A stretch of DNA of 64,000 nucleotides from Lingula anatina (lineage: Eukaryota; Animalia; Brachiopoda): positions 23,174,225-23,238,224 of the forward strand of contig CM120640.1 in the NCBI GenBank assembly GCA_051362555.1. The letters run 5' to 3'. Under the pieces are notes generated by a model that did no database searches, was not told where the DNA came from, and worked only from the letters and a program-made list of their open reading frames with translations. Within the stretch, counting starts at the first letter, position 1. The number at the start of each line of letters is the position of its first letter. The position numbers were made by a program, and so were the translations under genes. Shown here piece by piece: positions 462 to 29,400 of this stretch.

Positions 462-2368
462 CCTTGCAGGTGCGACCTTCTATCTCGGACTTAAAACTGC
501 TAAAGTCTGTGAAATCAGTCAAGTCAAAAACATATTTTGAGTCTGGATTAGATGCAATGCTCTGAAGCTCGCTATAATCAATACCGCTTGTAACTCCTAC
601 GGCAAACACGATGATGTCATTCTCGTGTACACGTTCGGCATACTGAATAGTGAGCGATTCGTCGTTGGATTGGCCGTCTGTGATGACTATACCTATCTGT
701 GGAGTTCCCGTCACGTTCTGGCGTCCCGAACTTTTCATAACGTTGACAAGAGATGAAAGTCCCAAATGTGTTGCTGTACCGCCGCCTATGTAGTTAACAT
801 TACCAATACGTGGAATAACTGTTGCGTTGCTGGTGTAGTCGTTGAGATCGAACTCGATTATCGCCGCGTTGCTGTACTTAATCAAACCAACACGGATCTT
901 GTCCAAACCCACTTCCATTGAGTTCACGACATTCTGGACAAAAGTGAGCATCTGTTGAAAGTTACTGGCACCTACGCTGCCAGAGGAGTCCAGCACAAAT
1001 ACCAGATCAGCGCGTAGAATGTCGCACTCTAAAATGAAAATAATAATAGCAAATATACATACATATTGATAAAGAAAGAAGAATCGTTAACATCTCACTG
1101 AATTCCAAATCTGTTAGATCCAGAGGTATATGTTAGAACTTTATATGGCAAATAAATAAATAAATTTCCTTTTATATATATATATGAGTGAAATCACTAG
1201 TCTCAATCTCCATATCGAGAGGGACTAAAATTCAAACAAAGTAAATAACAAGCTATCCCTATCATCAACAGAAAGTACTCCAATTGACGGATTTCAATAC
1301 ACTTCATTTTCAATTTTTCGTTCCCAACCCATAACAAATAATGTAAAAACTCATTCCTTAGGTTCATTTTTGAATTTCGATTTACTGTCTTCTGCCTTTA
1401 ACAGCCTGCTTGCATAATTTTCTTTTCGTTTAACAGTGTATGACTTACTTGATTGTTTCTCTAATTCTGTAACGTCGTCTATAAATTTCTGTTCTGTCCC
1501 CGCTCCACTGTTGCTGTTATAATACCTTTTCCAGTACGTTGCCTGGCCACTAATGTCGCGGGGGATAACTTGGTTTATGTTGGAAAGGAACAATCTTGCA
1601 GCGAGACCAGAATACAGCGGCTTCTGGAGGTCCGACCATGAGACCGTTGTCCAGTCGATGTTAAATTTTGTCCTTATCGCTTCAAATTTTGATGTTAGAC
1701 CCGGGTGGCTAGATGTGTCCTGTGTCGATTCGAAGCCGATTCTATCAACCTGAAAATGAAGATGAATTTACATCCACCGTCAGTGTGCAAGATATCCAGG
1801 GAATTGCAAGCCGTTTTATTAACATGAAAATTGCAAAATAACTGTACTTTCGTTACAGATTGGAAAATTGAATTTCATCAATATGAAAATGAACACCAAT
1901 TATAAATATTTCTGACAAAAGGCTTCATCAGTATTATTCAATAACGATTGCTATTTGTCAACCAGACCAAGTAAGGGATGTACTCTATCAGTCAGAGAGG
2001 AAAGTGGTTAGGAAATATAAAAATAATAGTGAGGAACACCTTTTGCCGAAACTTTTAAAATTGGTTTTCGATTTCATAAAAATAAACTTATTACTTCCCG
2101 TAGATAAACTTTTTTTCACTTCATTTTATTTAAGGTTACATTAAGCAAATTCTCACCTGCCAAATACCCCCAAAATAATTGTCCCGGTACGTATTTGAGT
2201 CAGTCCCATCTTTGGACTCCACATAAGCAATTCTCCTCAGAAATAATTTGTCATCGGGGAATATGCCAGAACTTTGAATGCGGTCCACTACCGCCTCCAC
2301 TACGGCCGTACCAGACGCCTTTGCTTCTACTGTGCGATCCACAGCACACATAATGTTCCTAACGGCAA
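462..2368 (-). CDS. Lysozyme-like N-terminal domain + von Willebrand factor A (VWA) domain protein (matrilin/collagen VI/XII-like VWA); partial, continues beyond the window start, first exon not identified
   Basis: Three in-frame exons with GT-AG ends: 2368-2157 (..AVDRTVEAKASGTAVVEAVVDRIQSSGIFPDDKLFLRRIAYVESKDG..GGIWQ), 1749-1449 (VDRIGFESTQD..DLQKPLYSGLAARLFLS..IPRDISGQATYWKRYYNS..GAGTEQKF) and 1028-462. The last is a phase 1-1 VWA exon: ADLVFVLDSSGSVG (MIDAS DxSxS), GGGTATH, IVITDGQS, VFAVGV, IAS. Confidence 0.9.
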
Positions 2369-3248
2369 CTTGGAAAACGAAAAAAGAAATAATACTTTTC
2401 ACTACAAAAAACGCCATGTTTTCACACAGGTTGCAATTCCACAAGAAGCCCAGTGTCAGTCTCAAGCTGATTACACGTTTATTTTCCTTAATGCGCCACT
2501 GATCTCCCCTTTTTATAACCTGCCACGAGTCTAAATTTCTTTATGTCAATAACAAGGTGTGTCGTTTATCAATATATATGCGCATGCGAAATAGCACGGA
2601 GTTTTTTCATTGCTTCGTAGAACCGCATTCACCTGGATGTTATTTCAATCGGATATGAAAAATAGTCCCCGGTTAATATCGACCATGGGGGTGGAGTTGG
2701 CATCTGAAGGTCACATAGATTCTTGGAAGGACTATTTTTAAACCTGGTGTGCAATAGCGATGATGGGTATTACGGATTTTACCAACTTCCTTTATCATAT
2801 TATAGATATGTCAGCGACCAAGACAGATAGCCTGTTACTATAATATTTATTTTCATAACCACTTAGTGATAGGAACACATAGGGGTGTATTCTCTTATCA
2901 CAAGGGTGGCTAGTAGTGTTTTATTATAGAATTCGTCTATACCAAAGCCTGGATTACATTTAAAATGCGATACCCGTACGGTGCATGTAAACTGTCCCTT
3001 TTCGTACGGCGTCTGAGCGGAGGTAGACGGTGGCCGTGCGAAATCGAAAGGATTAAGGCCATGTAATGTAGACATTAATACTAGTACTCGGCGTAGCCCG
3101 TAGCTCCTTACGCGATTTCAGAGGATAAGGAGCACATACATGAAATTATCAGGTTCAGTTTTATTTGTGTGTATGTGATGGCTCGAAAGATTTATGTACG
3201 GACTTTGGCTGTTAGTATACTTTCTTTATCAAAGATCATGCAGGGTCG

Positions 3249-6200
3249 AGATAAGATTTTTTTATCAATTTACAGTATCTACCCCCCCCAAAGAAATATA
3301 ATTTACTAACCTTGAATTCTTGATCCAAAAAGAAGTCAATGTGCGCGTGGAGTCGCTCATCATCTTATGTCCTGTAAAAAGAAATAAAAAAACAAGATGA
3401 TATGTTTTTCTATTTACCTTTCCTCCCACCCCCCAAAATATTAAAATTTACTAACCTTAACTTGTATCCACGAGTGAATTCTATGTCTGGTTCAATTTAC
3501 CAATCCCCCTGCCAAAAAAAAAAAATCAAATTTACCAACTTTGAATTCTTGGTACAAAAAGTAGTCAATGTCCGTGTGGAGTCGCTCATCATCTTCTGTC
3601 CTGTAAAAAGAAATAAAAAGTGATTAGATTTTTTTTCAATTTACACCCCCCCTCCCCCAAAAAAATATTTACTAACCTTAGCTTGTATCTAAGACTGAAG
3701 TCAATGTCCGGTTGGAGAAGCTCTTCATCTTCTTTGTCCTGTAATAAGAAATATGCAGCAAGATTAGTTTTTTCAATTTACTAATCCTCGTCCCCAAATA
3801 AATAAAATTTACTAACCTTGAATTATTGATCCAAAAAGTAGTCAATGTCTGTGTGGAGTCCCACATCATCTTCTGTCCTGTAAAAAGAAAGAAGGAGATT
3901 AGATTTTTTCAATTCCCCCCCCCCCCCAAAGAAAAAAAAACTTTACTAACCTTATTTTGTGTGGACGAGTGAAGTTAATGTCAGGGTGGAGTTCCTCATC
4001 TTTTTTTTTTTTTGTTCTGTAAAAAGAAATATGAAACAAGATAAGATTTTTTTCAGTTAACCAATCCCCCTGCAAAAAATCAAATTTACTTACCTTGAAT
4101 TCTTGATCCAAAAAGTAGTCAATGTCCATGTGCAATCCTCATCATCTTCTGTCCTGTAAAAAGAAATAAAAAGGAGATTAGATTTTTTTTTCAATTTACA
4201 GCCCCCCCCCCCACCACCCAAAGAAAATAAACTTTACTAACCCTAACTTGTATCGACGTGTAAAGTCTTTGTCCGGATGGAGTCGCTCATCATCTTCTTT
4301 GTTCTGTAAAAATAAATGAGAAGTTGATTAGATTTTTTCAATTTACCAATTCCCCTCCCAAAAAAATTATTTTACTTACCTTAATTTGTATCGACAAGTG
4401 AAGTCTTTGTGCGGATGGAGTCGCTCATCATCTTCTTTGTCCTGTAAAAAGAAATAAAAAATAAGATAAGATTTTTTTCAGGCTACCTATTCCCCTCTTA
4501 ATAAATTTACTAATCTTGAATTCTTGATCCAAAAAGTAGTCAATGTCTGTGTAGAGTCCAACATCATCTTCTGTCCTGTAAAAAGAAATAGAAACGAGAT
4601 AAGATTTTTTAAAATTTACAACCCGCCCCCATCCCCCCAAAGAAAATAAACTTGACTAACCTTAACGTGTATCAACGAGTGAAGTCTTTGTCCGGGTGGA
4701 GTCGCTCATCATCTTCTTTGGTCTGTAAAAAAAGATATGAAACAAGATTAGATTTTTTTCAGTTAACCAATCTCCCCCCCCCCCCCAAAAAAAATATAAT
4801 TTACTAACCTTGAATTCTTGATCCAAAAAGTGGTCAATGTCTTTGCAGAGTCGCTCATCATCTTCTGTCCTGTAAAAAGAAATAAAAGGAGATTAGATGT
4901 TTTTTTCTATTTACAACCCCCCTTCCAAATTAAAAAAAAGTTTACTAACCTTATCTTGTATCGACGAGTGAAGTCAATGTGCGAGTGGAGTCGCTCATCA
5001 TCTTCTTTGTCCTGTAAAAAGAAATTAAAAACAAGATTAGATCTTTTCATTTTACCTCTTCTCCCCCTCCTCCCCCCCCCCAAAAAAAATAAAATAAAAT
5101 AAATAAATAAAATTTACTAACCTTGGATTTTTGATCCGAAGTCAATGTCTGTGTGGAGTCCCTCATTATCTTTTGTCCTGTAGAAAGAAAAATATAATTT
5201 ACTAACCTTGAATTCTTGATCCAAAAAGTGGTCAATGTCTTTGCAGAGTCGCTCATCATCTTCTGTCCTGTAAAAAGAAATAAAAGGAGATTAGATGTTT
5301 TTTTCTATTTACAACCCCCCTTCCAAATTAAAAAAAAGTTTACTAACCTTATCTTGTATCGACGAGTGAAGTCAATGTGCGAGTGGAGTCGCTCATCATC
5401 TTCTTTGTCCTGTAAAAAGAAATTAAAAACAAGATTAGATCTTTTCATTTTACCTCTTCTCCCCCTCCTCCCCCCCCCCAAAAAAAATAAAATAAAATAA
5501 ATAAATAAAATTTACTAACCTTGGATTTTTGATCCGAAGTCAATGTCTGTGTGGAGTCCCTCATTATCTTTTGTCCTGTAGAAAGAAATGTTTTTTTTTT
5601 TCAATTTACACCCGCCCCCTCAAAAAAAAATAATAAAATAAAATTTACTAACCTTAACTTGTATCAACGAGTGAGGTCTTTGTCCAAAAAGTAGTCAATG
5701 TCTGTGTAGAGTCCCACATCATCTTCTGTCCTGTAAAAAGAAATAGAAACGAGATAAGATTTTTTTAAATTTACAACTCGCCCCGATCCCCCCAAAGAAA
5801 ATAAACTTGACTAACCTTAACTTGTATCAACGAGTGAAGTCTTTGTCCGGTTGGAGTCGCTCATCATCTTCTTTGTCCTGTAAAAAGAAATAAAAAGGAG
5901 TTTAGATTTTTCAATTTACCTTTTCCCCTCCTAAAAAATATAATTTACTAACCTTAACTTGTATCGACGAGTGGAGTCCATGTCTGGGTGGGGTCGCTCA
6001 TAATCTTTGTCCTGTAAAAAGAAATGAAAACCAAGATTAGATTTTTTCATTTTACCTATTCCCTTCCACCCCCCCCCCCCCCCCCCCCCCAAAAAAAAAG
6101 AAAAACTTTACTAACCTTAACTTGTATTAACGAGTGAAGTCAATGTCCTGGTGGAGTTGCTCATCATCTTCTTTGTCCTGTAAAAAGAAAAAAAAACAAG

Positions 6201-6390
6201 ATCAGATTTTTGCAATTAACCTATCCTCCCCCCCCCCAAAAAAAAATTTTTTTTTTACTAACCTTAATTTGTATCCACGAGTGAAGTCAATGTCCGGGTG
6301 GAGTTGCTCATCATTTTCTTTGCCCTCTAAAAAGAAATAAAAAGGAGATTAGATTTTTTTTCAATTTACAACCCCCCCCCCCCCCCCGCA
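3249..6390. repeat. Complex tandem array of ~22 units of ~130-150 bp, with two unit types (A/B) that mostly alternate; each unit has exon-intron architecture on the minus strand
   Basis: Recurring + strand core tttactaacctt(gaattcttgatccaaaaagta|aacttgtatcgacgagtgaa)gtcaatgtc..ggagtcgctcatcatcttct(tt)gtcctgtaaaaagaaat..gattagattttttcaattta, then poly-C and poly-A. Includes a near-exact 398-bp duplication (~4791-5188 vs ~5189-5586). Confidence 0.95.
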
Positions 6391-7119
6391 CCTTAACCAC
6401 CTTAACATATCTAATAAATAAGACTGTTAACAATAACAACAGACGCAGGTGACGGTTATATGCACAGACACATCTGTGTCTGTACATAAAAACAAAAAAG
6501 GGAAAAACACTCACTCACACTTGAGAGAAAATGCACATCAGCCTTAGATGAGAAACACGACAACCAAACAAGCGTGACGTAAATAGGGCATATGAAGGTT
6601 TTGGTTCTAGCCTCAAAGGGCATTCAACTTTCAAAAACGACCTAGAAACATGGGGTTAGAGGAATATGACAGAAATGAAAAGAGAGTATGACATGGTGGT
6701 ACTAACCCATCTCCAGCTTGGATTTCAGTCCATTTACGATTAATTTTTTCTTCAGCGCTTATTCGACGTCTAAGAGCTGAGTGTTATTTGTACATGTACA
6801 TTTCCCAGAGCGACGAGTTCGCGTGGATTGAAGGGTCAAATTCAGAGAAGCACACCATGAGGAAAAGACGAAACATTCGATGTTTTGTGCTAGTAAAGAA
6901 ACTATCCTCAGGTTCGATGCATTGGCGTAGGATCACGTGAGATTTGAAGGCGGTTGCCCGAAGAAAATCTCTCTCACTTCTCGTCCTTTGTACTCCTCTG
7001 GAGTGAAACGCAACATGTTCGCAACTGCTTCACAATTGCCCGCTCTTAGACTTCCAATCTTAGATTGTCGGCTGGGGGCGTTGCTGTGGTCACCATCTTG
7101 TCAGTTTGAACTCGGGGGT

Positions 7120-7157
7120 GTCGTGTGAGAGTGAGACCCAAATTGCATTTTATATAC
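7120..7157 (-). promoter_or_regulatory. Candidate TATA-box core promoter pointing toward the repeat array and the VWA gene
   Basis: The minus strand reads gTATATAAAAtg at 7156-7148, with Inr-like TCACTC/TCACAC about 25-30 nt downstream. Motif only; no transcript data. Confidence 0.35.
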
Positions 7158-8198
7158 ACCTACGTTTGAAATGCATTCAGCGTTTCATACCTAAACTTTT
7201 TTGTTGAAACAGAAAAAACGCGCATTTACCTCGGAGGGAAGAATCAATGTTAGGCTATAATAGTTTTTGGAGGGAAACCACGCATGCCTCTCCCCCAATT
7301 ATGATTGACAGTATTCTTGCATCTTGTTGACATGATATCAACCTGAAGTTTACTAACCTGCCCCAGGCCATCATTGGACGACCTTGTCCGCTTACACTGG
7401 AACACTTATTCACAATATACACTGATCCACAATGCACTTTGAAGAAACTTTCATTTCATTTTTTGTTTCACAGATGATGATAATAAAGATAAAGTGATAA
7501 TTCATTTTGCTATAAACATTTATGTGGAGTTGTCCAGTATTTTTGTAGCATAATTAATTTTGCAAGGAGAAAGGATAACGAAAATTATTATATACTTGGT
7601 GTGATTTAATGTTTTAGTTACTTTTTACATTTGCTCAAATATTTTAACTACTTCTTATGTTTGCTTGAAAGAAGATGGCATACAGGGCTCCATAGTTCCC
7701 CTTTTCACTGTTCAGAACTGGCATGGTTTAAAAAACTTTCGTGTGTGTGTGTGTGTGTGTGGTGTGGGGGTGGAGGTAGGGAGCAAGAAAACAAGGCGGG
7801 GACATCGTGGGATATGGTGGCCAGGCTATGGATAGACGGCAGAGAGTTACAGGTGGTGCCCCCCTCTGAAAATGGAGGTAAGGCCAATGATCTGAGAAAT
7901 TAAGTATTCGACGTAAGGAAGTAACAGTTGATGTAACATGTACCGTTAATTACTTTTCGATTTCAATGGTGTGATGTGCGTAGAATTAGATTGTTTTTCT
8001 ACTTAAAGATGAAGCCTATTTAGTAATGTCAATCTATGGCAAATAACAGGGGATGGTGAAAATTGAGTAATTGAAGGTATGATCATTCCCCTATTTCTAC
8101 CCTTTACCCTTAATAGACAAAAAACTATGAAAACAAATATTTTAGTCGATATATATTTGTATCCTTATTAAAGATAAATTTCCTAAATTGATGGGTTT

Positions 8199-8483
8199 CA
8201 GGGGCGGATCTGGGATTATTTGAAGAGGTCCGGAACGACAGGCCTCAAACGCGAAGTCAACCATCGCCCCCTTGGCGTGGGGTTCGGGGCCTGTTCAAGG
8301 GCCCTGAAAATTTTTTGGTGTTTTGGAGTGCAAACGGTGCCCTTTGGTATGGTTTAGAACTATGATTCAGCTAGTCAAAATTTTTATTTCAAAAGGGGAA
8401 TATTGGTGTGATATTTTTTTCAGAAACCGAAGTGTGGGGGTCAGGACCCCCTTGCCCCCCCCCCCCTTCTAAATCCGCCACTG
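8199..8483. mobile_element. MITE (non-autonomous DNA transposon) with CAG(G/T)GGCGGAT termini
   Basis: caggggcggat at 8199-8209 and atccgccactg at 8473-8483 form a 10/11 inverted match. Interior is GC-rich with G/C runs. No clear TSD. Confidence 0.7.
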
Positions 8484-11063
8484 TCATGCGTCCTGCCGCT
8501 ACATGTATCCTGGCGATGTTACATAAACTGAATTTTTTTTTGCACAACATCACTATGTGGTGTGGTATAAATCATGGCTTTCTTGTTGCCAGCTTTTAGC
8601 ATCTATTTGTCTACTTTCAGAATAATCATTTTAAAAAAAGCTGCATGAAATAGCTAAATTTTGGAAAGGAATGTTATAGGAACATGAATGAAGTAGGTAT
8701 AGGGTGGCGAGGGATGTAACACGGAGGATGGGACTCGGCAACTTAGAACATTGCAGCATACTCAAGATGATATTTGCAAGAGTTATGTGAAAGCAGTGAT
8801 AATTCTAAACCATTGTTTAATGTTTTTTATCCCTGTTTTAGGCCTGGATTCACAGGAGCATGTGTAAAAAATGAGCATGTGTTGGGAAATGATGCAAAAT
8901 TTTCATGGTGGTACTATATTTGTTCAAACAATTGCTAAAATTTCACATGAAATCTTATATTTTGGTAAAGATTTAAGGAACATTGTACTAGTCTTACAAA
9001 GTAGATATTTCTAGTTTGAAGTGGATTTTTCTAAGGAAACCAACACGGCAGTTAAATTTACTCTGTGTGTCATAAATTAGACCAGTTCAGACGCATGACC
9101 CAAAGTAATCCTCACTCTTGGGAGACTACAGACATGGGGACAACTTTGGAGAAACTCCAGAGGACCTGCACTACAAGAAATATGCGGATCCTTCCAATTC
9201 TGTGCTGGCTCGAATGAAGTATTTTATTTCTGCTAGTCTTATGTTTATGTGGGATTAACAATTATGTATTGAATTTCCACTTAAACTTGACCATCCAGAG
9301 GACCTGCGGGAAAAAAAGGCACGACCTGTCGTACAGGCAGTTTCCTGATGTCTGAGACAAAGTAGATAAAATTAATGATGAAATGACAAGTTGCTATTTC
9401 AGTCAAAGTATTTGAACTTCACGAGACAAAACAAACACGGGTAAGAAGAGCCATCGATTCGCCGATAAAATGAAAGGTCTCTGCAGGATTTTGGCATCAA
9501 AAGATTAAACGAGTTCTTGGTGACGTTTTTTTTTCTATCACTCACTATTACTTCTTATTATACGTCTTTTAGAATTGCTTCGCGTCAGGGTCCCATTTCC
9601 TCTCAGGACTGTCCACTACTTGTTTATTATAGTTTCAAATTCAAAAATTCCACATGAAAATTTCATTTGCCAAATTTGTCTCCATTTGGCAGAAATCGAG
9701 TGAATGGTTACGTATGCAAAGGATGTTTGGACATACTACAATCTGTTATATTAATCACATTTGAAGTACTTTATTGTACTACAAGTGAAAAATACAAAAA
9801 AATAAAATAACTAAATATAAGTCAAAATAACTTTACAAAAATATAATTCTACGGGTTGACATGATAAAGAAGTGCAGAACCTTGGCAAACTGAAGATATG
9901 TAGGGAAGTGATTTTGGCCAAGATTTGATAAATGGAAAAAAATTAAATCTTACAAAAAAATACAGAATAAATGTTTTTAAAAATATGTTTAACTTCCATT
10001 AATTCATGTGGGGTTATTTATACAGAGCACACATATTTTTGAAAATGTATCTTAGAACAGAATTTGTATCCTAGGCATGCAAAAATATTTAATTTAAGAA
10101 GATTACAATTTTTCTATGACTGCCATTTTTTAATCAAGATATATTGTGATCAATGAATGAATTTTTTTCATTGCCCCAAAGCAAGATTCTTACACCACCA
10201 TGCTGCTGTGAGTTGGACTAAATGGGAGATTATTTGAAGATTAAAAAAAAAATCTTTCAACTCAAAATGCTTCTCTCTTAAAACAAAAATCATGGCATAT
10301 AAATACCTTGGCCAAGAAATATTCTGGTGCTTAAGCCCATGCAATATATTAACTTACTAATACTGTCAATCAAAAAGAAAAAAAAAAGAATTGGATAGGT
10401 TTAAACAAAACACAGTGCATCTCATCAAATGAGCTCTAAGAATGTAATCATCTATCAAACCATTTTGTGTAGCAATCTCTTAGATTTCGATTATGCTAAA
10501 CTGTATTCAAATACAATTGTTTCAAATTTACTACTCTAGTTAGTGGCAGGATCACAAAACTGCTATGACCATAAATGGCATCCATGGACAGTTTTACATC
10601 AAGGAGCATTATGGTTTTCAATATATTTAAACATATTTTAAATAAATTATGTAATACAGTCTTGTAAAATTAATCTTCAAACACGGAGATACTTATATCA
10701 AGCTCATGAATTAAATAAGCTGAAGTCCCATAAAAGGGTTTGACACTGAAGTATTTGATAACAATTCTTGAAAACAAATTAAGAAATAAAATAAGAAGAC
10801 CCTGCTGCTACCTGATTCTTAATTTTGAGCAGATATATCACAAACACTTGACGTTAGCTAACTACAGGCACACCATGACACACACAGTGCTTCTAAATAC
10901 ATGAACATTTTACACACTATTTAAGCCAGATAATCACTAAGCCTCATGCACTCATGTAGTAAATACATCAAACTTTCTCTACTAATATACCAGTGACAAA
11001 CTAAACCTTTTTTCACCAGCAGTTCTTTCAGTGCAAGGGCATTACTTGATGCAAACTTTTATA

Positions 11064-12213
11064 CTATAAGCATTCTTCAGTCTCTGCATCTGTTTTAATG
11101 GCTGAAAAACTGAGATCTATTGGCAGGGAATCTCCTTCCTCCCAGAGTGTTTCCAGGGGTCCCATGTCAGCAAATATTTTGCTGAAACTTTGGTTGTTCA
11201 CCATCTGTAAACTGTTGTTGAAAATGTCAGGTTTGGGCTTAATGGGTGTCAACCCTGGTATTCCAATATCTCCCAGTGAACCAAAACCTGGAGATTTAGA
11301 CTCTAGGTAAGTGGAAGAAGAGATCTTCATGTTGTCACTGTGTTGTTGACGATGGGCTCCTCCTGGTGACAGTGGGGAAAAGATGGCACTGTCAAACAGG
11401 TTACTTGAGTTGCGAAGGGGGGTCAGTCCCTTTATAGGGGAAACAAGCTCTACATCAGGACACATCCCTTTGTAGGGGGTTGAGGTAGAAAGAGGGTCCC
11501 TGTGCTTTGGTGGGGTCTTCAGTAGATTCCTGATGGGGGATGTAAACTCATTCTCAAGGTTTTCAAAAATATTTTTCAAGGCGGAATCTGAAAGAGTATT
11601 GCAAGTCAAACCATCTGCCTCCTGACCTCCTAGGAATGAAGAGCTTTTGGTTCTAACCAGACGGCTCTTGGTCCTCCTTCGACGGCATTTCTTGTGTTTA
11701 GGTGAAATCTGCCATGGAGCAGACTTTGGCATCTCGCCAATACTGCAATCACTGCCAGATCTTCCTGAGGACATATCTATACCAGAGTCATACCTGCGAT
11801 TCATCTCCATGCTGATGTTATCCCCACAGCTGGCATTTAACCATGCCTGGGTAATGATGTTGTTTTCATCGTACACTTGGACATTTGGTGCTATTTTGAC
11901 ATGTTTGGTTCGTGGAGCCTGGCTCTCTAGGCTGCTATTTGGGCGCTTGCGATTGGATGGAGGACCCGGATCCACTTTGCTCCCTGTAAAGTAAACAAGT
12001 GGTTTCTAGCACTAAAAATCTAGAGTGACAGATAAAAGTTAGGATAAATATTATATTTCTTGCTACATTAAAAAATTAACAATAAAACTTATTACCAGTC
12101 ATTTGTTGGTTTATCATATATAAAATAATATTTCAGCTTGCAGGTAATTTCCCAACTTTTTCATCATTTTATTAAAAACCAAAAACCTTTTTCAAAGCAC
12201 AAGACTGAAGCAG

Positions 12214-12246
<33 letters not shown>

Positions 12247-15180
12247 ATTTAAATGAAAAAAAGGAAATGCTGCTGACAATGTATCATCATGTCTTTTTAA
12301 CTTGCCTGCTGTTGTTAGCGGGGCAGCGCTGACAGACATCTGTGACAGCTGTGTGGCAGCCATATTAACTGAGACAAAGTTGGGGATGGGAATCAAAGCA
12401 TATGTCTGAGGACTAGGTCTTGGAAGTATTGGTGCTGGTGCTAAAATGAAAAAAAAAAATGCAGTGTAGATAACAGCAGTTATAAGGCGAAAAATTATGC
12501 AGTCTATTTCATTATTCATACTATATTGACAGAATAACATTAGGCAAAAAATATAAACAGTATAAAATAACAGATTTCTATTCATTTTGCATTGACCTCA
12601 GCATGACCCTGCCTGCATATTTTCTGTCTTATCCAAAATCCAAAAAGTTTTTGCTAACCATCTAAAGAAAATATCTAAAATAGTTTGGAAAATTACATAT
12701 GACAGCCTGAGCCTTGCATCAGTATGTTAGTTTAAAAAATAAGAAATTAGAAGTCTCACTATTAGTTAGCTTTTGTGCATAACTCTTAAATCAGCATAAT
12801 TAAATGTTCAAATTAAAAAAAAAAGTGCATCATGAATCCTAAACCCAGGGCACCATTTTGAGAGCCATACCAAACTAACTACCTTTTCTCAGCCCTGTTT
12901 TGGAAGAATTGTATCTTGTACATGTCCTTTGCCCTAGCACACCCCCTTGGACTTGCAGGGGGTTTGCCCGAGAGGGGGTGGAGGTGGCCACTGGAGTTGG
13001 CTGCGAGGAGCCAGGAGAGTTGGTCACAGATTCAAATAACACACAGGATGTATCAGCATCAGCTCTAGATGGTGCTACAATGAATATCACATCAAACTTC
13101 AATTGCTGTTAGTGAGCACACCCAGTCTTGATTAGTTTCCCTTATAAGTTGTCAGATATCTTATAAAGTCAACTTTTTGAATAAGGCAGCACAGGCACAA
13201 TGTTAAACAGTTAATTGCAAACATACTCCATTTCAAATAATTTTCTATTAAGAAATAAAATGCGTGTGCAAAAGTACGTGTTACATATAGACAGGATACT
13301 AAAAAAGCAAAATGTGTCAAGTGAGGGTCCACAGCACAACCCTAAGGAAACACTAACAAATTCTGTACCTGTGACAGCAAACTCTGGAGGTGGTCTAAAA
13401 CTGGAGCAGTCTGATGCAAGGGTCCAATAGGAACCATGCTTTCCTGGGGCTGTAGTCTTCTCACGCACAAACAAATCATATAATGACAAATTGTGGCGTA
13501 TTGAATTCTGAAAAAAATAAAAATAAATGAAATAAAATAAATAAATAATAAAATAACTAAATAAATAATCAGATCAGTTGACCTTGATAATGATAGTGGC
13601 TAATTTTTTTTTTATTAACAAATTAAATGTTTGATAAACAGGGTTTATTATCTTTCAGCTAAGCAGAGGAGGCCATTTTAACTGGATTATTATTTATAAC
13701 AGACCATTTAACATATTTAAGTTACAGTAGACATTGCTGTTTATTACCTTCCAACCTTGCTTGGCAGTGTGCTTGTAAAATGGGAAGGTATTTTCAATCC
13801 AATGATAAATTTCCCTGAGAGTCATCCTCTTGTCCTCTTTGCTGTTAATGGCCATTTGGATCAGATGCATATAGGAGTAGGCTGGTCTTTTGTGAGGACC
13901 ACACTCTCGATTCATCTGGAAAAGAAAATAACAGCATTCTATTCAGTTTTGCTTTGATGGTTTTATAAAGTGTCAGTATTCAAGAACAAAAAGAATGAAC
14001 TTTCTTGTTTAAGAACCATTTAGTTTTCTTTTTTTTTTCTGTTTTATACAAATAAAAATGTCTAAATACCTGTTATCAAATTAATAAAACACTCTAAAGA
14101 CAATAATAAAACAGCATTTAAAATTCCAGTTTGTACTTACTTTCTTCACATCTTTATCCGTAGTATAATGTTTGGTGGGAGCTTTGTTTATCTTGGCAAA
14201 GTTGTCTCCTGTCATGTCCCCCAACCAGTGAATGTTGGTCAGAGACTCGTCCAAAATGGTTGGGGAATTTCCTAAACAAAATAATTTTCAGTACTGATAA
14301 AAAAAAGAATTGATTGAATATAAATAAAGCTTATTTTCAAGAAAAAAAATAATAAGTTATCTAATTTCTTCTACTTAGTCAACAGAACCTCATTACAATT
14401 CTAAGATATGCTTAGCAAGAGCTAACCAGCTTTCATAATTTCAAATAAGAAAGATACATGAAGATGTTATTCTTCTTCCTGCCTAACTGACCTACCTGCT
14501 TCTTGGCATATCATATTTTGGTCTTTACTGAAAGTTGTTATTGGAGAGTTTTTCTTGAAGTCAAATGCTGTGGATCCTGTCTTGATTCCTCCATTGGAAA
14601 ACATGGGCAAACCTTCATAAGCAACTTGAGGCTCCCCAATTTTAGTGATCTCAATGACAGTCTCTTGCAGCTTGCTTTCTTCAGTCACAATGTGACCATC
14701 ATTTGCTAAGTTACTTTCATTTGCATGTTGTTGGATATCTTTGTTAATAGATTCCAGAGCTCTGGACCTAAGATTGGATGACTTCTCTCCAAGGGGTACA
14801 ACAACAAGTTTCTTCATGTACTGCCCCTTGTTGCTGTTGATAATACTGGGGGTTGATGTTGTGTTGATATTTCCTGTGCCAACTAACGAAGAGTGAACGA
14901 ACTTCTGGCATTCAACAGACTGCTTTTCCTGATAACCTGCCGCTTGCTGCTGTGAGGGTACGACTGTCAGATGCCACTGCCCTTTACTTACAGCGTTACA
15001 TGCTGTACTCTGATCAGTGATATAATTGTTGTTTGTTTGAACTTCTGTCAAATTTGTGTAATTTGGGTAATGGTTGGATGACGTACCATGGTGTTCTTCT
15101 GTCCCTCGTTCATGGTTAAGAACTACAACAAACGTCTTCCTGGCTATGTCACCTTCTGGTTCTTGTCCACAGATGTTCAT
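11064..15180 (-). CDS. FOXM1: Forkhead box protein M1 (~789 aa, 7 coding exons)
   Basis: Exons 15180-14496, 14271-14141, 13915-13748, 13507-13369, 13074-12883, 12440-12306 (GC donor) and 11983-11064 sum to 2370 nt in frame. FoxM1 hallmarks: LDESLTNIHWLGDM before the forkhead; forkhead KRPAYSYMHLIQMAINS..MTLREIYHWIENTFPFYK..WKNSIRHNLSLYDLFVRE..GSYWTL; HVKIAP; many SP/TP CDK sites (TPPK, STPYK, SPIK, TPIK); C-terminal NQSFSKIFADM. Confidence 0.93.
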
Positions 15181-15499
15181 TCTAGTTGCCTGACCTCGAA
15201 TTAAATGACAAATAAAAATACATCACTGGTAACATGAATTACCCTAGCATAACTATAACAAAATAATAGTACCAAAGTAAGAAACAACTCCGAAATTTGG
15301 TGAAATGGGAGTGAGTGCTCACAATGATATCAGTCAGTTGTATTTTATTAAAATTCCTTTGCCTGAAATCTTAAGGAATTTATTGCATTCAAAATTCTCA
15401 TGCTTTCAAAAATGACAGACAAGCGAAAATGTTCGAAAAATACTTACTATTCAGGTTTTTAAAAAATGTTTTAATCCTATCGAGTCATCTTGACCCAGA

Positions 15500-15610: not shown

Positions 15611-16846
15611 TTTGAGGGAAACCCAAACGATTAACTAACCAAAACACGTTTAGCATTTGGCTATAAACGCGTGTAATAATTTTTAAAAACCCGGAAGCTG
15701 TCGAAGTGGAATGACACAATAGGGCTATCGGATGTCCAGTTAGAAGATTTTAAACTAATCGTAACTTCATTAGAGAATTTCAAATGTACGATAAAAATAA
15801 TGAATAAACAGTGTCAAAGAAAAAAAAGGAAAAAATTAAAGTGGAATGAAATCTTTTTTATATGGTGCTGGTAGACCCTAATACACTCTTAAACGGCCCG
15901 AAATGCTAAGTTATGTTTATATTTGATGTGTAAATAGTATTGTGTTTCATATTAGTTATTTCCATTCTTAACACCCATTTGTTCATACCGTTCGTATGAG
16001 ATTCACATTTCACAATAAATATATACCGTAAACAACTCACAGAAACATGAAATTGATATATTCCATTTTACCACAAAAATCACAATTATTCTTGAATCTG
16101 TGCTTCCCATCAGACCATGTGGACCTTCATAGATAGCTATTCCTCAGTATTAATCTCTTAATTGAGAGATAATTAAAAAAACTTTTAGGAATAAAAAGAC
16201 GGACTAATTTTGAATGTTGGAGTGGATTCATTAACCATTGGTAACATTTTATGGGAAAATTGTTGTTTACCCCCGGAGAATCCCTTTTTTTTTGGGGGGG
16301 GGGCAGAGTTGTTAGTTGTTATCCCTTTCATATTCTAGTAATGTTTGTTTGTCTAGTAATCTTGAATCCTGAAATTATTAATAATTAACTATTAGTCATT
16401 CAATAGATCACCACCAAAATCTGATTGTTTCTTACTTGGTCAACTCCAGTTAGTTTATGAATGTTTTATCAATATTTGTCCACAATTTTCTCATAATGTT
16501 GCTAACTGACAGGTAAACAAAACCGAACCAAAATCTCCTTGTTAGGGGTTGAACTCACAAGTCTGAAAAACACTGAGTATGTAGTTTGATGATTCTGAAA
16601 TTTTGTGTTTTCCTGCACAGTACATTGAAAATACAATTTTTTGTTTGGCTGAGCTTATATCTGTTCTTTTCAAAGCACACAAAAATTTATATAAAGTTAA
16701 TGAATGTAGAAATAATCATAAAAATTGTCTTTAAAATTATTCTCAGTTATATCTAAAACTTCTGTTTTGAACAAATTATTAATTTGGTGCCTGTTTTGAA
16801 AAACAATTTTGAATTTTCTTTTTATTTGGGAGTTATCAATTAAGTG

Positions 16847-17453: not shown

Positions 17454-20400
17454 ATGTCGAGAAGTGCCGGGACATTAGTAACAACCCACAACGCCACTTA
17501 TATTCCTCCAAGATTTATGCCAGGGTAAGTAAAACCCAAATAGTCTTTGCCGTCTTGTTGCCGCGTAGTGTATTTGCCTAATAGAGGCTATATGGTTTAG
17601 CCGTATTGCTTAAGCCCAATTAATTTTGTTTATAAACCTATACGATTGTTTTATCAACTCCTGTAATCCCTTTTTATATTTGTTCTTTCAAAATACCCCC
17701 AAAATATAGGCCCAGTGGACATTATCTCATTAAAATAATAATATGAAATTAAAAAAGATAAATAAATAAAAATAAGATGTCAAAAATTAAAAAAATTACA
17801 TTATATTTCTGATATCTTTAAAATGTTTATATTATTTAGCAAAAGTTAAAAAAAAGTTTGGTCCTTGTTATTTTTACATCAACCTGGCTGTGCATTACCT
17901 TAATTATCATACCAGAACAGAATGTGGTAATTTTAAAAGTTTTAGGCACTTTACTGACAATTCACAGTTGCAAATAACAAACAAATTGAAGTTTCTTAGT
18001 TTTGGTATTATATGCTACATAAATGCAGTAAGTATCTAGCATATTTATAAGTCCAATGACTGAGGCAACAAAATAGAAGGCATGGGAAAGATTATAAATA
18101 GTTGGTTGTAATAAGTAGCAGTCCGTGTTAAAATTACATATCAAGCAAAATCAACCATTACTGTGCCATTACTTCAATAGCTAGAGTAACAGATTTTAAT
18201 GAAGTGCCCAAAATAATCCCATTCTGTAATTTCTTTCAGATACCGTGGTCACTGTCCAGCCCTGAAGTTTGACTATGGAGAGACCTATGGCAACGCCACA
18301 GCAAAATACTTCCAGGACTACAGATCAACAGTGCTGAGCAGCTCCCAGAGTGTGTGGTGCAAGGGTGGCAGGTTCCCTACATACTACACACACGACCCCT
18401 CTTCTGTAATAGGAGCTAGGACACGTACAAGAGACAGGTGGTTGGATGCTCCCAAGTACAGACTCTATAATGTAGACCATGATAGAAATGAGGAACTTAA
18501 GCAATTTGATAAGGTCAGTTTTGATCCCTTTCAATTACCCCCACACTTAAATCTAGAAAAATATAGACAAAAATTAATAGGATACTGATGTTTCAGTGCT
18601 TTAAATGGATATTTTATTTATCTTGGAAGTTATGTAAACCAGGTGTTACTTTGAGATATTAAATCATTGTGACATTCATCTAATTTACTGACTAATGATA
18701 TTTAAGAAAGCATTCAAAAGTGTTGTTTTTTTCCCTTTAGCTTGCCCAGAAACACAGAGAACACTTCAATGACAAGAGTGCTACAGTAAAGCGTGTAGAT
18801 GCATTCATGTTACCAGTCAAGGCTGAAGATCAGTTTAAACAGCATGTACCATTGTAAGTACGGGTGTGCTGGTCTTTTTCTCTGACTCACCTGCTGTTGA
18901 TGTCATTGCTTTGTTGACACTGATCTGAGTGGAGTTCGTCAAACTGACTACACTGGCTGATATTATTTATCATTTCAAGTGTTGGAATAAAGTGGAAACT
19001 GTTTCATTATTTTTTTTTTTAGGTTTGATGAATAATACTGTGTACGTGTTTTTGATAAGAGTGATGCATAGTGTAAAACATTCAGAAACAACTACAACTG
19101 AACAAAGTTTTTGAGTTAATTAATAAATTTTGATTTTTATCACTTCATCTCATGCTAACAACAGTGACTAAGAATCACTATATACACCTCTGTGTTTTGT
19201 ATACTAACTGTTTGTTTGTAATAGTAAAGTAGAATTGTTGTATTTTTGACATTCATGTAATAGTTATAAATGAGTCATGAAAAGGTAAAAAATGTCCATG
19301 AGATGGACATTTATTAATGTATTAGACAACACCACTGAGCTATGGTGGTTGAATATAGGTGCTGTTCATGTATATGCAGATACAGACTTGTTGCAATAGC
19401 TAATCCTTTAAGTCATTTTCCAAATTGATAATGTGTGTACAAAAGAATTTGTGAGACAGGCTGATAGTTCAGGCACATGTCGGTCAGACTCTATATAAAA
19501 GATTATTTAACAAATTAATTTCAGGTTCTGCAAGTTTTGAAATTTAGCCATCTATAAAATTGAATTGGTGTCATTAAATAAAAAATTATGTTTTGAACAA
19601 TCAAAGTGTTTCTTGCTAACTTGCTGCTAAATGTTCTTATTGGCAATATGTATAGCTTATAATAAACCAAAGACTTTTGATGACTAAATGTGTTTGCCTT
19701 TTCTGCCATATATATTGTAGTGATGAATGGGGATGTAATTTAGGAAGTGCTATTTTTCCTCTTCAAAATAATAATAATAATAATTTTGCATAATATCACT
19801 GAATGCCTATAAAATGTTTAATATGACTTTTGGAAATGGTTATGGTTTTGCTTAGATATTATCAAAATAAATTCCTTGTTTACAAAATCATACATGCTTT
19901 CTAAGCATCATCTAGCAATTATTCTATAAATGTTCACTGAAAAGTGCTGTAGAACTTTCTTCACACACTGTGCCCAGATGTATTACAGGTAAGAATATGG
20001 ACACCTAGCATGATTTAAGTGTGGCAATGCTAGTCCGGAAAAGATTTAGTTACATGTACATGTAGTTGCATGCATATAGTATTTATCATTGTGACCACCT
20101 GCAAATAGCTGGTGGTGCCTGCATTTATATACCCTTTACCTTACTCCAAAGTTGTCTGCATATTCTGCATATTTTGCCCCTTCATGTAACCTTTTTATCA
20201 ATGCTCTTCACAAACTGCATTCAAATTTGGCTGACAGCCATGTTTAGGTTACTTTGAGTCTGCCTGATCTTGGATTCATGTGCTGCGATTTCACAGGTAT
20301 GGCAGTCATTAGCAAACTTTAACCAAATAATCTTTATAACTTTGTTGCTGCTTAGGGTTAGAGGTCCTTGTAGAGCGATCCAAGCGAAATAGTTATGTCA

Positions 20401-23462: not shown

Positions 23463-26400
23463 CTACAGCCGAATCCTGAAAGAACTGCAAGCAAAAGAAA
23501 AATATGAAATTACCTCAAATCACTCTAAATAATGTATAAACAGAAATATTAAAGTTTTTTTTGTTATGTAGGACACTTACAACAAATCATTACTTACTTA
23601 CAACAAATTACTTTCTGTTATGTAATAACAACTACTAGATTTATTTTAATTCTTAAAAGTTATTAATACAGCCTCAGTTTATCAATAGAATAATCAAATC
23701 TGCATTTTCAATACTGTATAAATAATTTACATTTGCAAAACAAATGATAAGCAAGCAAACTACATATAGGCAAATGTCCACTCTCCTTTCACCACCACGC
23801 AGTAAGGGACTTAACAGATGGATTAACAGAGGCCAAACATTGTGAATAACTTTCACAGAAAACTAATGTTTCTATATATGTGTCATTAGGTTTGACTGTG
23901 ATCTGACTCTTCACTTCATTCTCTGCAATAAATAAAATCAGTAAAAAGCCCAGATGAGTGAGGAAAATGTGTTGCAAAGAGTCACAATCTATTTCATATA
24001 ACAGAAACAATAAAAAGCAAGTGTTTACTAAGGCAGCACACTATGAGCATTATAAATAATGCATAAAATGTTAATCATAAATAAGGTAATCAAAGAAAAA
24101 GCCAGTGTTTCAATTACAAAACCACTAGTGATGGAGAGAATAAGTTTAGGAAAATTGTCAAACAAAAACTGTGTCAAGTAGCAGAACATGCTTCCATAAA
24201 AGAATTGATTGTGCGCAATATAAAATGCAGAAAACAATATGCAAACATTAACTTCCATGCAAATACCAAATTGAGATAAAAAAAAACATTAAAGACATAA
24301 TACCAAAAGATAAAACCCATGCAAAAACAAAAACAGTTAAAAAGTGCTTGCCACAGTTAAAACCAAAATCCAAACCAATGTGTGCAATTGTTTATCACGA
24401 GACAAGTCTTACTTTGTGAAGTCGGGAGCTTTAGACATGACATGTTCAAATTCAGCATATGACAAGTTTTCGTCTCCATCTAGATCTACCTCACTGAATA
24501 TCTGCAGTAGCGACAGAACAGAAATGCAAAAGAGAACAAAGATTTACACAATGAACTAAAAGCACCCATGTAAATGCCAGTCGCAAATACATGCAAAAAG
24601 CCCAAGCTGTATGAAAATCTGTCAAATCAAATCAATTCCTGCTAGCACCAAAACAAATACACTGAATGCCCATTACATATGATAAAATAATATGAAGCTG
24701 CCCTGTAACTGAAGCCTGTAAATAAAACATGCTTAGTAACATGTGTTGTCAGGATTGTGTACATCGAAGAGATGTAATGATATACTGTCCTGTATATACA
24801 AGATATATGCAGTTTTTTGTAGGAAAAAATGCCCAAAATTGACTTCAAGTGTTGAAGAAATACAATTTTCAGTACACTAATCGTGACAGCAATGTACTTG
24901 ATAAGCGTAAGAAACATGGCAGCAAAGCTGTCAAATGGACAGACATATTAATGAAAAAAATTGTTCAAACGGTAAAATTATGGACAACCAAATTAAAAGG
25001 GAAAGGGCACAAAAAGTGTTAATGATGCAAGACCCATAGGAATGAGAAAAAACGAGAAAGAAAATTTTTTTCATAACTAAAAGAAAAATAATAAATAATC
25101 CAATCAGGCTGGCATTCAAATTAAACTGCATTTTAGTCCTATGGATCATTTTTGTAAATTTGAGAACAATTATTCTTTAACTGTGTTATTAAATAAAAAA
25201 TTCAAGGAAAGAGTGCAAACACAGCAATGTGAGAGATACTGGTGATAATATTATGTACAGACACATTGTGTCTGTCCACAATAAATCCATGCCTAAAGAT
25301 TTTCAGCACAACCCAGCAGTCTTACTTGGTGAATTCTGGAGCTTTGGACACGAGGTGGTCAAATTCAGGAAATGATAATTTTTTATCTCCATCTATATCT
25401 ATTGCTCTGAACATCTACAGTAGCAACAGAAGAGAAATGCAAGAGGTGTTACAGAAAAACAACACCTACACAATGAACTAGAAGCACCCTTTGTAAATGC
25501 AGATGGTTAAATTATATGCATATACAACTGAATAATATCAACTCCTGCTAACATCAAAGCAAGAACAATGAATGCTCATTCTATATGACAGAATAATAAT
25601 AAGCTGCCCAGCAAATGAGACTTTGAAATAAATGCTTAGTAATATGTTGTCAGGATTGTGTGCACTGAACCAGTGGGATGACTTGCATATAAACTATAGT
25701 GCCAAATAGTATATAGGCAATACATAGCTTTTTTTGCTTGTTTTAAAGAGAAAAAGCTACTTGAAATGTCAGATTCACTTTTCAGTATGCATGACAGCAA
25801 TGTACTCATACAGCATAAAAAACAAGGCAGCAAGGCTCTCAAATGTACAGACATATAACTGTCAAAAGAAGCAGTGACATATAACAGTCTGAAAGTATGA
25901 ATCATGCACTACTTTTATTGTGGAGATTCAGACACAGTGTAAGACTCATGGGAATTCAAAGCCACACCTAGAAAGTGTCAATTTGTAAAAAAAAATGAAA
26001 AACTTTAAAAGTTTGGGAAAAATAATCCACCCTTTTTTAAAATTTGAGCTGCATTTTGGTCCTATGAATCATTTCTTTTGGTTTGAAACTAACAAGTAAC
26101 AATTTTCCTTTATTGTGTTGTGAGGAAAATACATTGCTGAGAAATGCACAATTTGGAAAGTGCACAGTGATGAAGGCAAAGGATACAGGTGATGGCTATG
26201 TATGTCCAGACACACTGTGTCTGTCCATAAAGAGCAATGATCAAAAGCATTCAAGCAAAACTATTGCAGTAGAGGTGGGGGGAGAGAAGCTATAATCTTG
26301 TTATTGGACCATACTCATTCTAGTGCTTACTTGACGAAATCAGGTGCTTTAGATATCACATGCTCAAACTCAGCAAAAGACAAACTGTCATCATCATCCA

Positions 26401-29400
26401 AATCTGCTTCTTCAAAGATCTGTTAGAAAATAACACAAGAGAAAAGCTGATTGAAATTATAAATCAACCATGCAACCATGTCTGTGAATAGAACCTTTCC
26501 CAAAGATACCAGTACAGGGAGTCCAAATGGGGCAAAAATAATGTTAACACAATTTCTATGGGAGTCTAACAACGCCAGAATGCTGTGCATGTGAAGGGGT
26601 GGGTGGATAACAAATGCAAATGTGTGTGTGCGTGTGTGTGTGCGTGTGTGATAGTACTTTGCCTCTTTTAAAACAAAATAATTTTTGAAGTGTCTGACAA
26701 AGTGAAAACAAGCCTAGCAATAATGATAGGAAGGCAGCATATTGGCAATAATTGAGAGGAGTAGCCGATAAGCCTTGCTCAACTCTGCACTGGGGATAAC
26801 TGATTGTTACATGTTCTAGCATCTGGAATATGAAAACATTTGCACAGTTATTAGAAGAGCAAAAAATCACAGCAGCAGCCACAGATGCAAGTCAGCAATA
26901 TGTTTTCCTGTTCACCTTCATTTTAAGCTATTCAATCTTCAAAAAGTACTTTTCATGTACTTTCACACAACTGGGTATGGATCAAATAATCAGGATACAT
27001 TAAAATACTTTCTGAGAAATATCCAATTTGTCCCCATGTCCCAACAATTTAAGCAGTCATATCTGCAAAATTTTGCAAGCCATCCACCAGTATTCACAAT
27101 TGTCAAAATGTGTGTGTGTGTGTGTGTGTGTGTGGTGGGGGGGGGGGGGGGGGGGGATATTCTGAAGAAATTGGTAATTCAAATGGCTGCTGTATAGGTC
27201 TCTGGCACAGAAAGCCCTGGCAAGAACGTACAGCAACTTGTCATGCTGAAATGCTCCACAATGAAGGAAAAACACTGCCTTTTATTTGACATGCTTTACA
27301 ATTCATCATGAAACTCTTATTAAGTGATGGTGCAAGTTTGACAAATTCTCTCTTTTGTATTAGTCAAGAATGAGCATCACACTTAATCCTGTCTGAAACT
27401 GAATAATAATAAAGATCCACAAAATATTTAATGTTTAAATAACATTATGTTCATCAAAAGTATGAAATGTCACCCCATCAAATTCAGCAAATGTTCACAC
27501 AGTAAAAAAATTAATATACAATTATCTTATTAATAAGTTATACTAAATGTCTTGCTTCGTTCAGTCTGAATGAACATGTAAAACCAAGAGCACACACAAA
27601 ACCTTATGTGATATACCATTTATATTCAAATATGTTTAAATTCAACATTTTTCTAACTGTAAGAAAGATGGCACAATACACCACAAGAACTTAATTTAAA
27701 AAGATTACAGAATTGAGGGCAATAAATGGCTCCTTTTTTTATATAATTCAAATTTTTACTCTTTCATCCACATCTGACACCTCAAATTACTGCAAGAGTA
27801 CCCACAGAAGGTCCTACCCCTAACTTACATTATCAATGAGCTGCTGCATGTCCTCTTCACCAAGCCTCTGATCTCCTGTCAGTCTGTCTATCACCTCTTT
27901 TAGGTCATTGCTACTGATCATGTCATCTTCATCAAAATCTGAAATACAGTGCTCATGGAAAGCTATTGGTAATAACTTAAACATTAAAAAATACTCATTG
28001 GCTGACATTTAATGCTCTCCAGTAAATTTTTGTTCATCTGACAACTAGGACATGGCACGGCATATTATACAGTATCACATAAATTCAAAAATTTAATATG
28101 ATTTGTCAAGTTGTGAAGAGGATGTACATTCCTCAGTTTTTACACATAAAAACTAACAGTTTAATACATTCTACATTAACCGTACATATGCTGTTATGCT
28201 ACTTTATTTATTCATTTGTAACACTAAAACCTAAAACTAAAATATGTGAGCTTTTTTCACTTTATCACTCACCATATATCCTGAAAGCATATTCCACTTT
28301 GACATTCTTTGGTGCATTATCACTGAACACTGACATCATATCTAAGAAGTCTTCAAATGACATGCTGCCATCACCACTCGAGGAAAATACCTTACATATC
28401 CGATCTTTGAAAGGATTTACCTAAAATAAAAAATTCTTTTCCAGGAACATTTGTAGTGTAAAATAAGTTGCAAAATTAACTATAAAAGTGCAAAATTGGC
28501 ACAGATGTACAGGGCTTGTCCACAAATTGTGCTGCAAAACAAAAATGGGAACAAAAAAAAATGTCTGTTCAACAAGTTCAGCTGGTGTGAATTTATTCAT
28601 CTGCATCAATTTAACTCTTGTTAATTCTTACCCTTAGTTCTGGTAACATCATGATTTTATCTTGTGGTAGCGTGGCATTTTTGTCCACTTCAACCAAGTC
28701 TGGGGCCAGCTGTGTGAACCTCTTGTGTACACTAGATACAAATTTAAATTTATAAATCACCAGAATTTATCACACACCCAATCTGTACAGAAATATTTAT
28801 TTTGTCATATAGATTTAAATGTCTTAAATCAACCCTGAATGATAATTCCTAATAAAGTATAAAATAAATATTTCGAAGATAATTGGTTAAAAATTTTATT
28901 AATGCTGTAATGCATTTAAAGTTTATTTATTTGGATAGATTCTTTACAAGTTTGAAAAATTAACTGAATATCTATCATGTATGAACTTTACATCTTCTTT
29001 TAAATGTTGATAAAAAGCATAAAAATAATTATAGAGAAAAACCAATGAGTAATCATCATTTTTAAAAGATAGAGGAAAGAGCTGACCAGTTCAATATCTT
29101 GTCATGTCCTCCAAAAATACTCATATAATGTAACCCAATAAAAATGTTTTCAATGTATATCATATATACAAAGATTTGCAATCAAATGTCTTAAAGACAT
29201 TGATATAAATTAACTTACTGTAAAATTTCCTTTTTTGTGAAGTATGTCAGCTCCTGAAAAACAAAAAGACACAATAAGGTCTAAGATTTTCACAAATGTG
29301 ATCAGATTAACCATTTATGAAACTGTGGCTCATGGATATTACATGGACCTTGAGCACTCAGCTGGCTTATTCTGACATAAAGATAGCAGGAAAGCAAAAA

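Follow-up and report, generated by a model that had tools for sequence, protein, structure and literature searches.

A tandem array of exon-like and intron-like segments on the minus strand of a 64,000-nucleotide stretch of Lingula anatina DNA (contig CM120640.1 of assembly GCA_051362555.1, hereafter the window) comprises 22 units of a high-copy family that is most likely derived from a gene and now a non-coding satellite, the copy in the window probably being old, decaying, and outlying. This reading is based on the observed anatomy of the units, the damage that they carry, the high copy number of the family, and the near-uniform majority variant found elsewhere in the genome. The origin of a satellite usually leads back to a transposon or another repeat, and brachiopod satellites seem undescribed in the literature searched. 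A monomer made of a whole exon and a whole intron, in two frame-complementing variants, offers a clear record of a gene fragment becoming satellite DNA, and such an array, unusual and probably a fossil, provides a natural test of whether splice signals persist without a protein.

Structure of the array

The array (3250-6410, minus strand) is built from units of about 140 bp, each combining an exon with a mini-intron. Parsing of the sequence resolves 22 exon-like segments that run head to tail on the minus strand from 6324 to 3311, of which 21 are full and one, at 3490-3456, is partial as judged by alignment. Each exon-like segment measures 56-78 nt and lies between a pyrimidine tract ending in AG and a GTTAGT or GTAAGT. 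The order of the units is B, B, B, B, A/B, C, B, A, C, B, A, B, A, B, B, A, B, A, B, A, partial B, A, and Tandem Repeats Finder reports periods of 138 and 277 bp. Head-to-tail tandem monomers, a mark of satellite DNA, are present.

A first-pass annotation of this DNA had described exon and mini-intron units with two phase-complementary exon types, a description that the parse upholds, with both quoted exons recovered exactly. Type B is exemplified by the intact unit at 4950-5011 (minus strand, 62 nt, phase 0 to 2, DKEDDERLHSHIDFTRRYKI), with further intact B units on the same strand starting at 6324, 6011 (59 nt, in frame), 5409, 4441, 4303, and 3738. Type A is exemplified by the intact unit at 4809-4869 (minus strand, 61 nt, phase 2 to 0, TEDDERLCKDIDHFLDQEFK), with further intact A units, also on the minus strand, starting at 5267 and 3600. 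Between these two exemplars lies a typical intron-like spacer of 80 nt (4870-4949, minus strand), which reads GTTAGT, a T-run, a G-run, CTAAT 27 nt before the end, a pyrimidine tract, and CAG. Introns in the array measure 73-110 nt, apart from two short ones of 29 and 49 nt, the second of which precedes the partial unit. The two GTAAGT donors claimed previously are located at 4379 and 4093.

Relative to the B exon, the A exon has lost 2 nt at its start and gained a net 1 nt near its end, differences through which the B-A dimer keeps the frame. The earlier statement that B-to-A alternation preserves the frame is borne out in both neighbouring pairs tested, where the combined exons give 123 nt, or 41 amino acids, without a stop, and the types alternate in 16 of 21 neighbouring pairs. 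Because introns cluster weakly by the type of the exon that follows them (150 of 5000 permutations), the B-A dimer appears to be old; the intron tree, with one of 14 branches supported, is too weak for use.

Mean pairwise distances amount to 0.18 among B exons, 0.12 among A exons, and 0.23 among introns, and since they far exceed the heterozygosity of 1.6% given for Lingula (PMC4595640), the array is considered old. An exact 398-bp tandem duplication of C, B, and A units (4790-5585), detected by Tandem Repeats Finder and confirmed for identity, sits in an array that is otherwise 10-20% diverged, and it is either a very recent event or an assembly artefact.

Splice-like signals and their conservation

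Donor-like motifs number 20 on the minus strand of the array against none on the plus strand, and acceptor-like motifs 20 against three. In 12 of 20 introns, an exact CT[AG]A[CT] branch motif precedes the AG by 25-29 nt, and most of the remaining introns have CTTAT. For the two monomers that match a strict pattern of donor, branch, tract, and YAG, 4 of 5000 and 5 of 5000 dinucleotide shuffles match it as well, a third monomer tested failing the strict donor pattern itself, and none of 820 other 140-bp windows carries the donor, branch, tract, and YAG on one strand; the patterns were chosen after the sequence had been seen, and the margin is nonetheless wide. The exon-intron layout of the unit is not chance, and its origin from an exon and an intron is well supported by these signals. 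It is scarcely credible that an ordinary AT-rich satellite came by these motifs through chance: the low complexity of the unit and the descent of the family from one monomer, which makes it a single trial, would favour such an explanation, but the shuffle and window counts speak against it, as does a spacing that yields a normal short intron plus an open exon frame.

Across 18 units, changed bases make up 1 of 72 in AG/GT against 55 of 743 among non-CpG exon bases (P=0.03), and 7 of 234 in TTTACAG plus GTTAGT against the same exon bases (P=0.008). The splice cores are somewhat better conserved than the exons, an effect that is weak but real. This excess is given little weight, given the relatedness of the units, the equal conservation of 4-10% of 13-nt exon windows, and the post hoc choice of the cores, although the better-kept cores do leave room for a spliced non-coding RNA.

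Coding state of the array

Ten of the 22 units are intact and 12 are disabled. On the minus strand, stops occur in the units at 6177, 5877, 5730, 4722, 3877, and 3371, frameshifts in those at 5575 and 5177 (both 56 nt), 4153 (-1 nt), and 4016 (+4 nt), a lost donor at 4575, and a lost acceptor at 3490. All six lesions flagged in the first-pass annotation (near 3825, 4510, 4672, 5665, 5830, and 6128) are real in the unit parse, and the damage extends beyond them to the stop in the A unit at 3371, the four frameshifts, and the 398-bp duplication. One TGA stop is common to three units (5877, 5730, and 4722), which indicates that copying continued after the stop arose. The -1 and +4 exons offset one another, and with all units spliced in order the longest stop-free run, of 80 amino acids (3817-4303, minus strand), passes through B, A (-1 nt), B (+4 nt), and A up to its stop. 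A long open frame across the array within a host gene is thus absent.

The exons exhibit no detectable coding constraint. Among 8 B and 5 A gap-free exons, with the exact duplicate left out, the 44 distinct changes include 11 that are synonymous, where 8.4 would be expected (P=0.20), and pN/pS is 0.69, below 1 but not significantly. Changes to stops number 3 against 2.4 expected in the same exon set, a neutral rate. It had been stated in advance that exon portions evolving as fast as the introns would tell against an unusual cassette, and exons without detectable constraint come roughly to that.

A profile of 13 exon peptides found no match in a full HMMER scan of 1.84 billion representative proteins, a search in which two B-A pairs with 35% random change scored E 1e-7; repeat masking before annotation could hide a real protein from such databases. 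Five exons returned one chance-level match only in Pfam, a word search with alignment against longer proteins returned no match to the unit, Rfam returned none for 2400-9500, and exact motif scans of contigs from viruses, metagenomes (two scans), and prokaryote genomes returned none. Ordered B-B splices of five intact B exons meet a stop in 20 of 20 cases, which means that a B-only array cannot code. A working coding cassette at this locus is not supported.

Copy number and the majority form

The family was followed beyond the window by aligning six DNA runs, as contigs only, to the window. Over 6 kb, 1,455-10,558 contigs per run were aligned, whereas any given place in the single-copy VWA region is covered by a single contig, at a depth of 54-109 (16-22 in run X4). 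The mean summed depth over the array relative to the single-copy region was 394x in X1, 1,167x in X2, 735x in X3, and 14x in X4, values that are qualitative, since summed contig depth gives no copy number. After division by 31 for maximal contig overlap, we infer approximately 290-870 units in X1-X3. The high genome copy number typical of satellite DNA is evident, and the unit extends beyond this locus in many copies, with thousands of variant contigs piling on it, an outcome that had been listed beforehand as counting against an exceptional array. A copy-number difference between individuals was considered and dropped, as X4 and X5, which have one sample code, differ more than tenfold in the ratio of array depth to that of the Helentron-like (HINE) end described below, and as repeat letters were skipped in X4 and X8.

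At four sites (5855, 5941, 5974, and 6002), an alternative letter makes up 95-99% of the X2 depth, the homogenised majority variant characteristic of satellite DNA. Since most of the depth differs in its letters from the window units, a more uniform form exists elsewhere, and the window array is a diverged outlier. Bins at B-type starts in X2 reach 2.2 and 1.7 million, against 1,400 at the A-type start in 5691-5741, and depth at the A-type start at 5730 is about 1,400-4,000; the A share is possibly under-counted, because A-type contigs can align to B units, with 12 of 49 indel rows listed. A near-uniform B-like form dominates the family. Five of the six variant B-like exons inferred from joints stay at 62 nt, and loose ends at 5896 and 6007 indicate that the majority form retains its acceptor as well as its branch motif. 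No joint in the DNA contigs corresponds to the exact removal of one intron among the 15 of 55 and 15 of 30 joints listed, so these joints give no sign of processed copies, as far as a weak test can tell.

Elements flanking the array

A HINE-like 5' end at 6424-6488 (minus strand) abuts the array start and is present at very high genome copy. Its 13-bp inverted arms (6488-6476 and 6471-6459) are followed by a decayed microsatellite, and the subTIR, its inverted copy, and the microsatellite before the array that mark a HINE 5' end are all found there. Within about 60 bp after the array, no HINE 3' subTIR with a palindrome was found. An 11-nt stretch (3193-3203, minus strand) with one mismatch to the inverted HINE arm lies approximately 50 bp after the array, with no palindrome after it, and differs from the 3' end in the family's full copies. 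It is contained in a separate, multi-copy, Helitron-like element of 155 bp (3081-3235, minus strand), which starts between A and TC, has a hairpin with an 8-bp stem, and ends between CTAG and T. A Helitron end near 3080 that would close an array-carrying element was ruled out, as this mini-Helitron has its own 5' end at 3235 and its junction with the array is single-copy. The end of another multi-copy element (2930-3046, with loose ends at 3046) adjoins the mini-Helitron.

Two full copies of the HINE family, at approximately 24.9-25.3 and 25.8-26.2 kb, have a different 3' end and no array-type repeats inside, and they probably represent one insertion duplicated together with its host gene. None of the contig records listed joins HINE-type flanks to the array repeat. 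Loose ends are short on array units (median 8-37 nt in the rows listed) against 155-255 nt at the HINE end, which suggests that arrays are flanked by arrays. An inverted-repeat search of 2400-9000 yielded only low-complexity pairs among the 25 of 923 listed. Because no 3' end matches, the array was not filed as a HINE central repeat; it is Helentron-associated on one side only.

Upstream of the array, at 6500-7150 (minus strand), lies a multi-copy gene-like segment with broken reading frames, present in roughly 10-20 copies by depth. It contains a 65-nt intron-like stretch (6706-6642, GTTAGT..CTAAC..TAG), and a TATA-like motif is found near 7155. The wider 6500-8000 region is multi-copy as well, at about 8-90x the single-copy summed depth. 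The broken frame of the segment gave no match in Pfam or a word search, and matches under 0.8 only in the ESM Atlas.

Neighbouring genes

The first coding exon of the downstream VWA-domain gene (2157-2417, minus strand) lies outside the array, has its own ATG at 2417 and a hydrophobic N-terminus, and is accompanied by TATAAAA at 2517-2511. Along the full length of the query, its product has a 98% match to a VWA-domain protein of Lingula anatina, which places the host in Lingula or close to it, and VWA protein P0002 and two homologues begin at the same place as the window ATG. The first-pass annotation had suggested that the array might be fused to this gene; B exons end in phase 2 and A exons in phase 0, neither type fits the phase-1 candidate acceptor at 2368, and the proposed fusion is therefore at odds with the phases. 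The N-terminal region of the gene (1351-2417, minus strand) has no Pfam match and 23 homologues, many of about 200 amino acids without a VWA domain listed, and is an unnamed conserved domain that is probably secreted.

Further genes and repeats were recorded in the window. A forkhead-domain gene (11064-15222, minus strand, Pfam Forkhead), which we take to be FoxM1-like, lies upstream of the array, and an exon of a gene resembling ciliary microtubule inner protein 2 (CIMIP2-like; 18217-18588, plus strand, Pfam CMI2B-like) is oriented divergently from it. At 24405-26420 (minus strand), three diverged tandem copies of an EF-hand exon, about 0.9-1 kb apart, have Pfam EF-hand matches and presumably resemble CIB proteins; two of the three carry a HINE-like insert, which therefore probably predates the duplication. 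In a MITE-like arrangement at 29647-30009, a 77-bp palindrome (29818-29894) is flanked by inverted repeats of 62 bp (81%), and a dispersed repeat of about 300 bp is found at 86-383 and 15991-16290, 70% identical and in opposite orientation.

Origin of the array

In the proposed course of events, a formerly spliced gene would have supplied a short exon together with its intron, and this piece would have been tandemly duplicated, with the B-A dimer as an old local unit (period 277) that perhaps mirrors the source gene. Unequal exchange or rolling-circle copying may then have expanded the family, largely in the form of B-like monomers unable to code in tandem. Upstream of the VWA gene, a short mixed array would have come to lie amid the remnants of transposons and would have drifted since, its splice signals persisting as inherited fossils. 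Among the three options offered by the first-pass annotation, a tandem exon-pair expansion decaying into a satellite is the best fit, with the correction that the satellite is genome-wide and high-copy, not purely local. Several points count against the gene-derived satellite, namely the better-kept splice cores, the acceptor and branch motif of the majority form, and the variant exons that stay at 62 nt, along with the cancelling shifts at 4153 and 4016, a pN/pS that is below 1, though not significantly, an A share that may be under-counted, a source gene that was not found, and the chance that repeat masking hides a real protein.

The remaining two options fare less well. In the first, the locus is a working combinatorial micro-exon cassette that produces variable acidic repeat proteins through exon skipping, possibly spliced to the VWA gene. 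The complementary phases, the open 123-nt dimer, the ten intact units, the frequent alternation of types, and the weak intron grouping that makes the dimer old are all compatible with it, but it is very unlikely, given 12 disabled units, neutral-looking substitutions and stops, the lack of a start exon and of a protein match, the start of P0002 and its two homologues at the window ATG, the phase-1 acceptor, and the finding of Luo et al. that the shell matrix proteins of Lingula include no secreted acidic ones (PMC4595640). The other option, an exon pair amplified inside a Helitron-type element, holds for the start of the array, where the Helentron-like 5' end adjoins it, and not for the downstream end, which belongs to the separate 155-bp element and offers no matching 3' end with a palindrome. 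Its fullest form, in which a non-autonomous HINE subfamily would have the array as its central repeat and would have spread a captured exon-intron piece by rolling-circle transposition, seems rather improbable. In its favour, a 5' arm, its inverted counterpart, and a microsatellite lie some 25 bp ahead of the first unit in a layout like that of the oyster Cg_HINE (PMC7492417), the 11-nt arm-like match lies beyond the last unit, and one-sided 'intermediate' arrays are known (PMC12628747); yet the downstream arm lacks a palindrome and sits within another element, the two full family copies have a different 3' end and no such internal repeats, the loose-end lengths suggest arrays flanked by arrays, and the downstream junction is single-copy.

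Unlikely, too, is a multi-copy transcribed unit in which the gene-like segment at 6500-7150 serves as the head of a long exon-intron array, spliced to a non-coding RNA or to variable repeat transcripts as in SmPoMuc-type genes, with selection on the splice sites and not on the peptide, and with the window locus as one ageing member. The splice cores would be better conserved than the exons for this reason, the head, in its roughly 10-20 copies, has a same-style intron-like stretch on the same strand and a TATA-like motif, and paralogous contigs connect it to the hairpin end; however, no contig bridges head and array among the 32 records listed of about 14,900, the head has no homologue, 9 of 14 tabulated variants on its two frames change a residue, and a high-copy transposon end lies between the two. 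A related and equally tentative idea is that a satellite of hundreds to thousands of exon-intron monomers may be transcribed and spliced, with donors, branch points, and acceptors under selection while the exons drift, in which case it would be no fossil but a 'spliced satellite' RNA or a large stock of micro-exons that can replace one another. If the units are spliced, their near-identical introns, hundreds in number and with variants provided by nature, would serve as a ready assay of how short introns are recognised and would be a candidate splicing-factor sink; if they are silent, the array amounts to a curiosity that can trap gene predictors.

Comparison with known systems

The LPA KIV-2 and NBPF Olduvai repeats each contain two exons whose phases complete each other. 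The array likewise repeats two phase-complementary exons, but the KIV-2 and Olduvai units are of kilobase size and lie in intact, expressed genes, whereas the Lingula array has no host gene or long frame. No Lingula satellite, and no satellite with an exon-intron monomer, was found in the literature searched, although the supplements and repeat libraries of Lingula papers may list the family; the word 'satellite' is absent from the main text of PMC13121700.

The satellite-like arrays of oyster Cg_HINE share with the Lingula array a short, dispersed array of 140-bp-class monomers placed right after an inverted-arm hairpin and a microsatellite, within a high-copy family (PMC7492417, PMC12628747). 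Cg_HINE monomers are mostly 140-180 bp (PMC7492417), and a one-sided Helentron association has been described for oyster satellites (PMC12628747). The Lingula array differs in lacking the 3' palindrome, and the portions of these papers that deal with the oyster repeats describe no monomer that comprises an exon and an intron in full (PMC7492417, PMC12628747). The chicken LL2R tandem repeat RNA is comparable as a non-coding tandem repeat rich in one-strand splice signals, but its donors are in threefold excess and its transcription is proven (10.64898/2026.03.19.712899), whereas donors and acceptors in the Lingula array, known from DNA alone, are paired one to one.

The SmPoMuc genes of Schistosoma mansoni also carry tandem units of a small exon and an intron, up to about 20 per gene, in which two exon types can intermingle, and form a multi-copy family (PMC2576457). 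The SmPoMuc units, which are expressed, span about 1 kb and contain an in-frame exon of 27 bp (PMC2576457), whereas the Lingula units, observed at the DNA level, measure 140 bp, have non-symmetric exons of 61-62 nt, and are disabled in more than half of the cases. The array thus lacks the long frame that defines SmPoMuc, KIV-2, and Olduvai, but it resembles them in anatomy and is likened to a gene-derived satellite.
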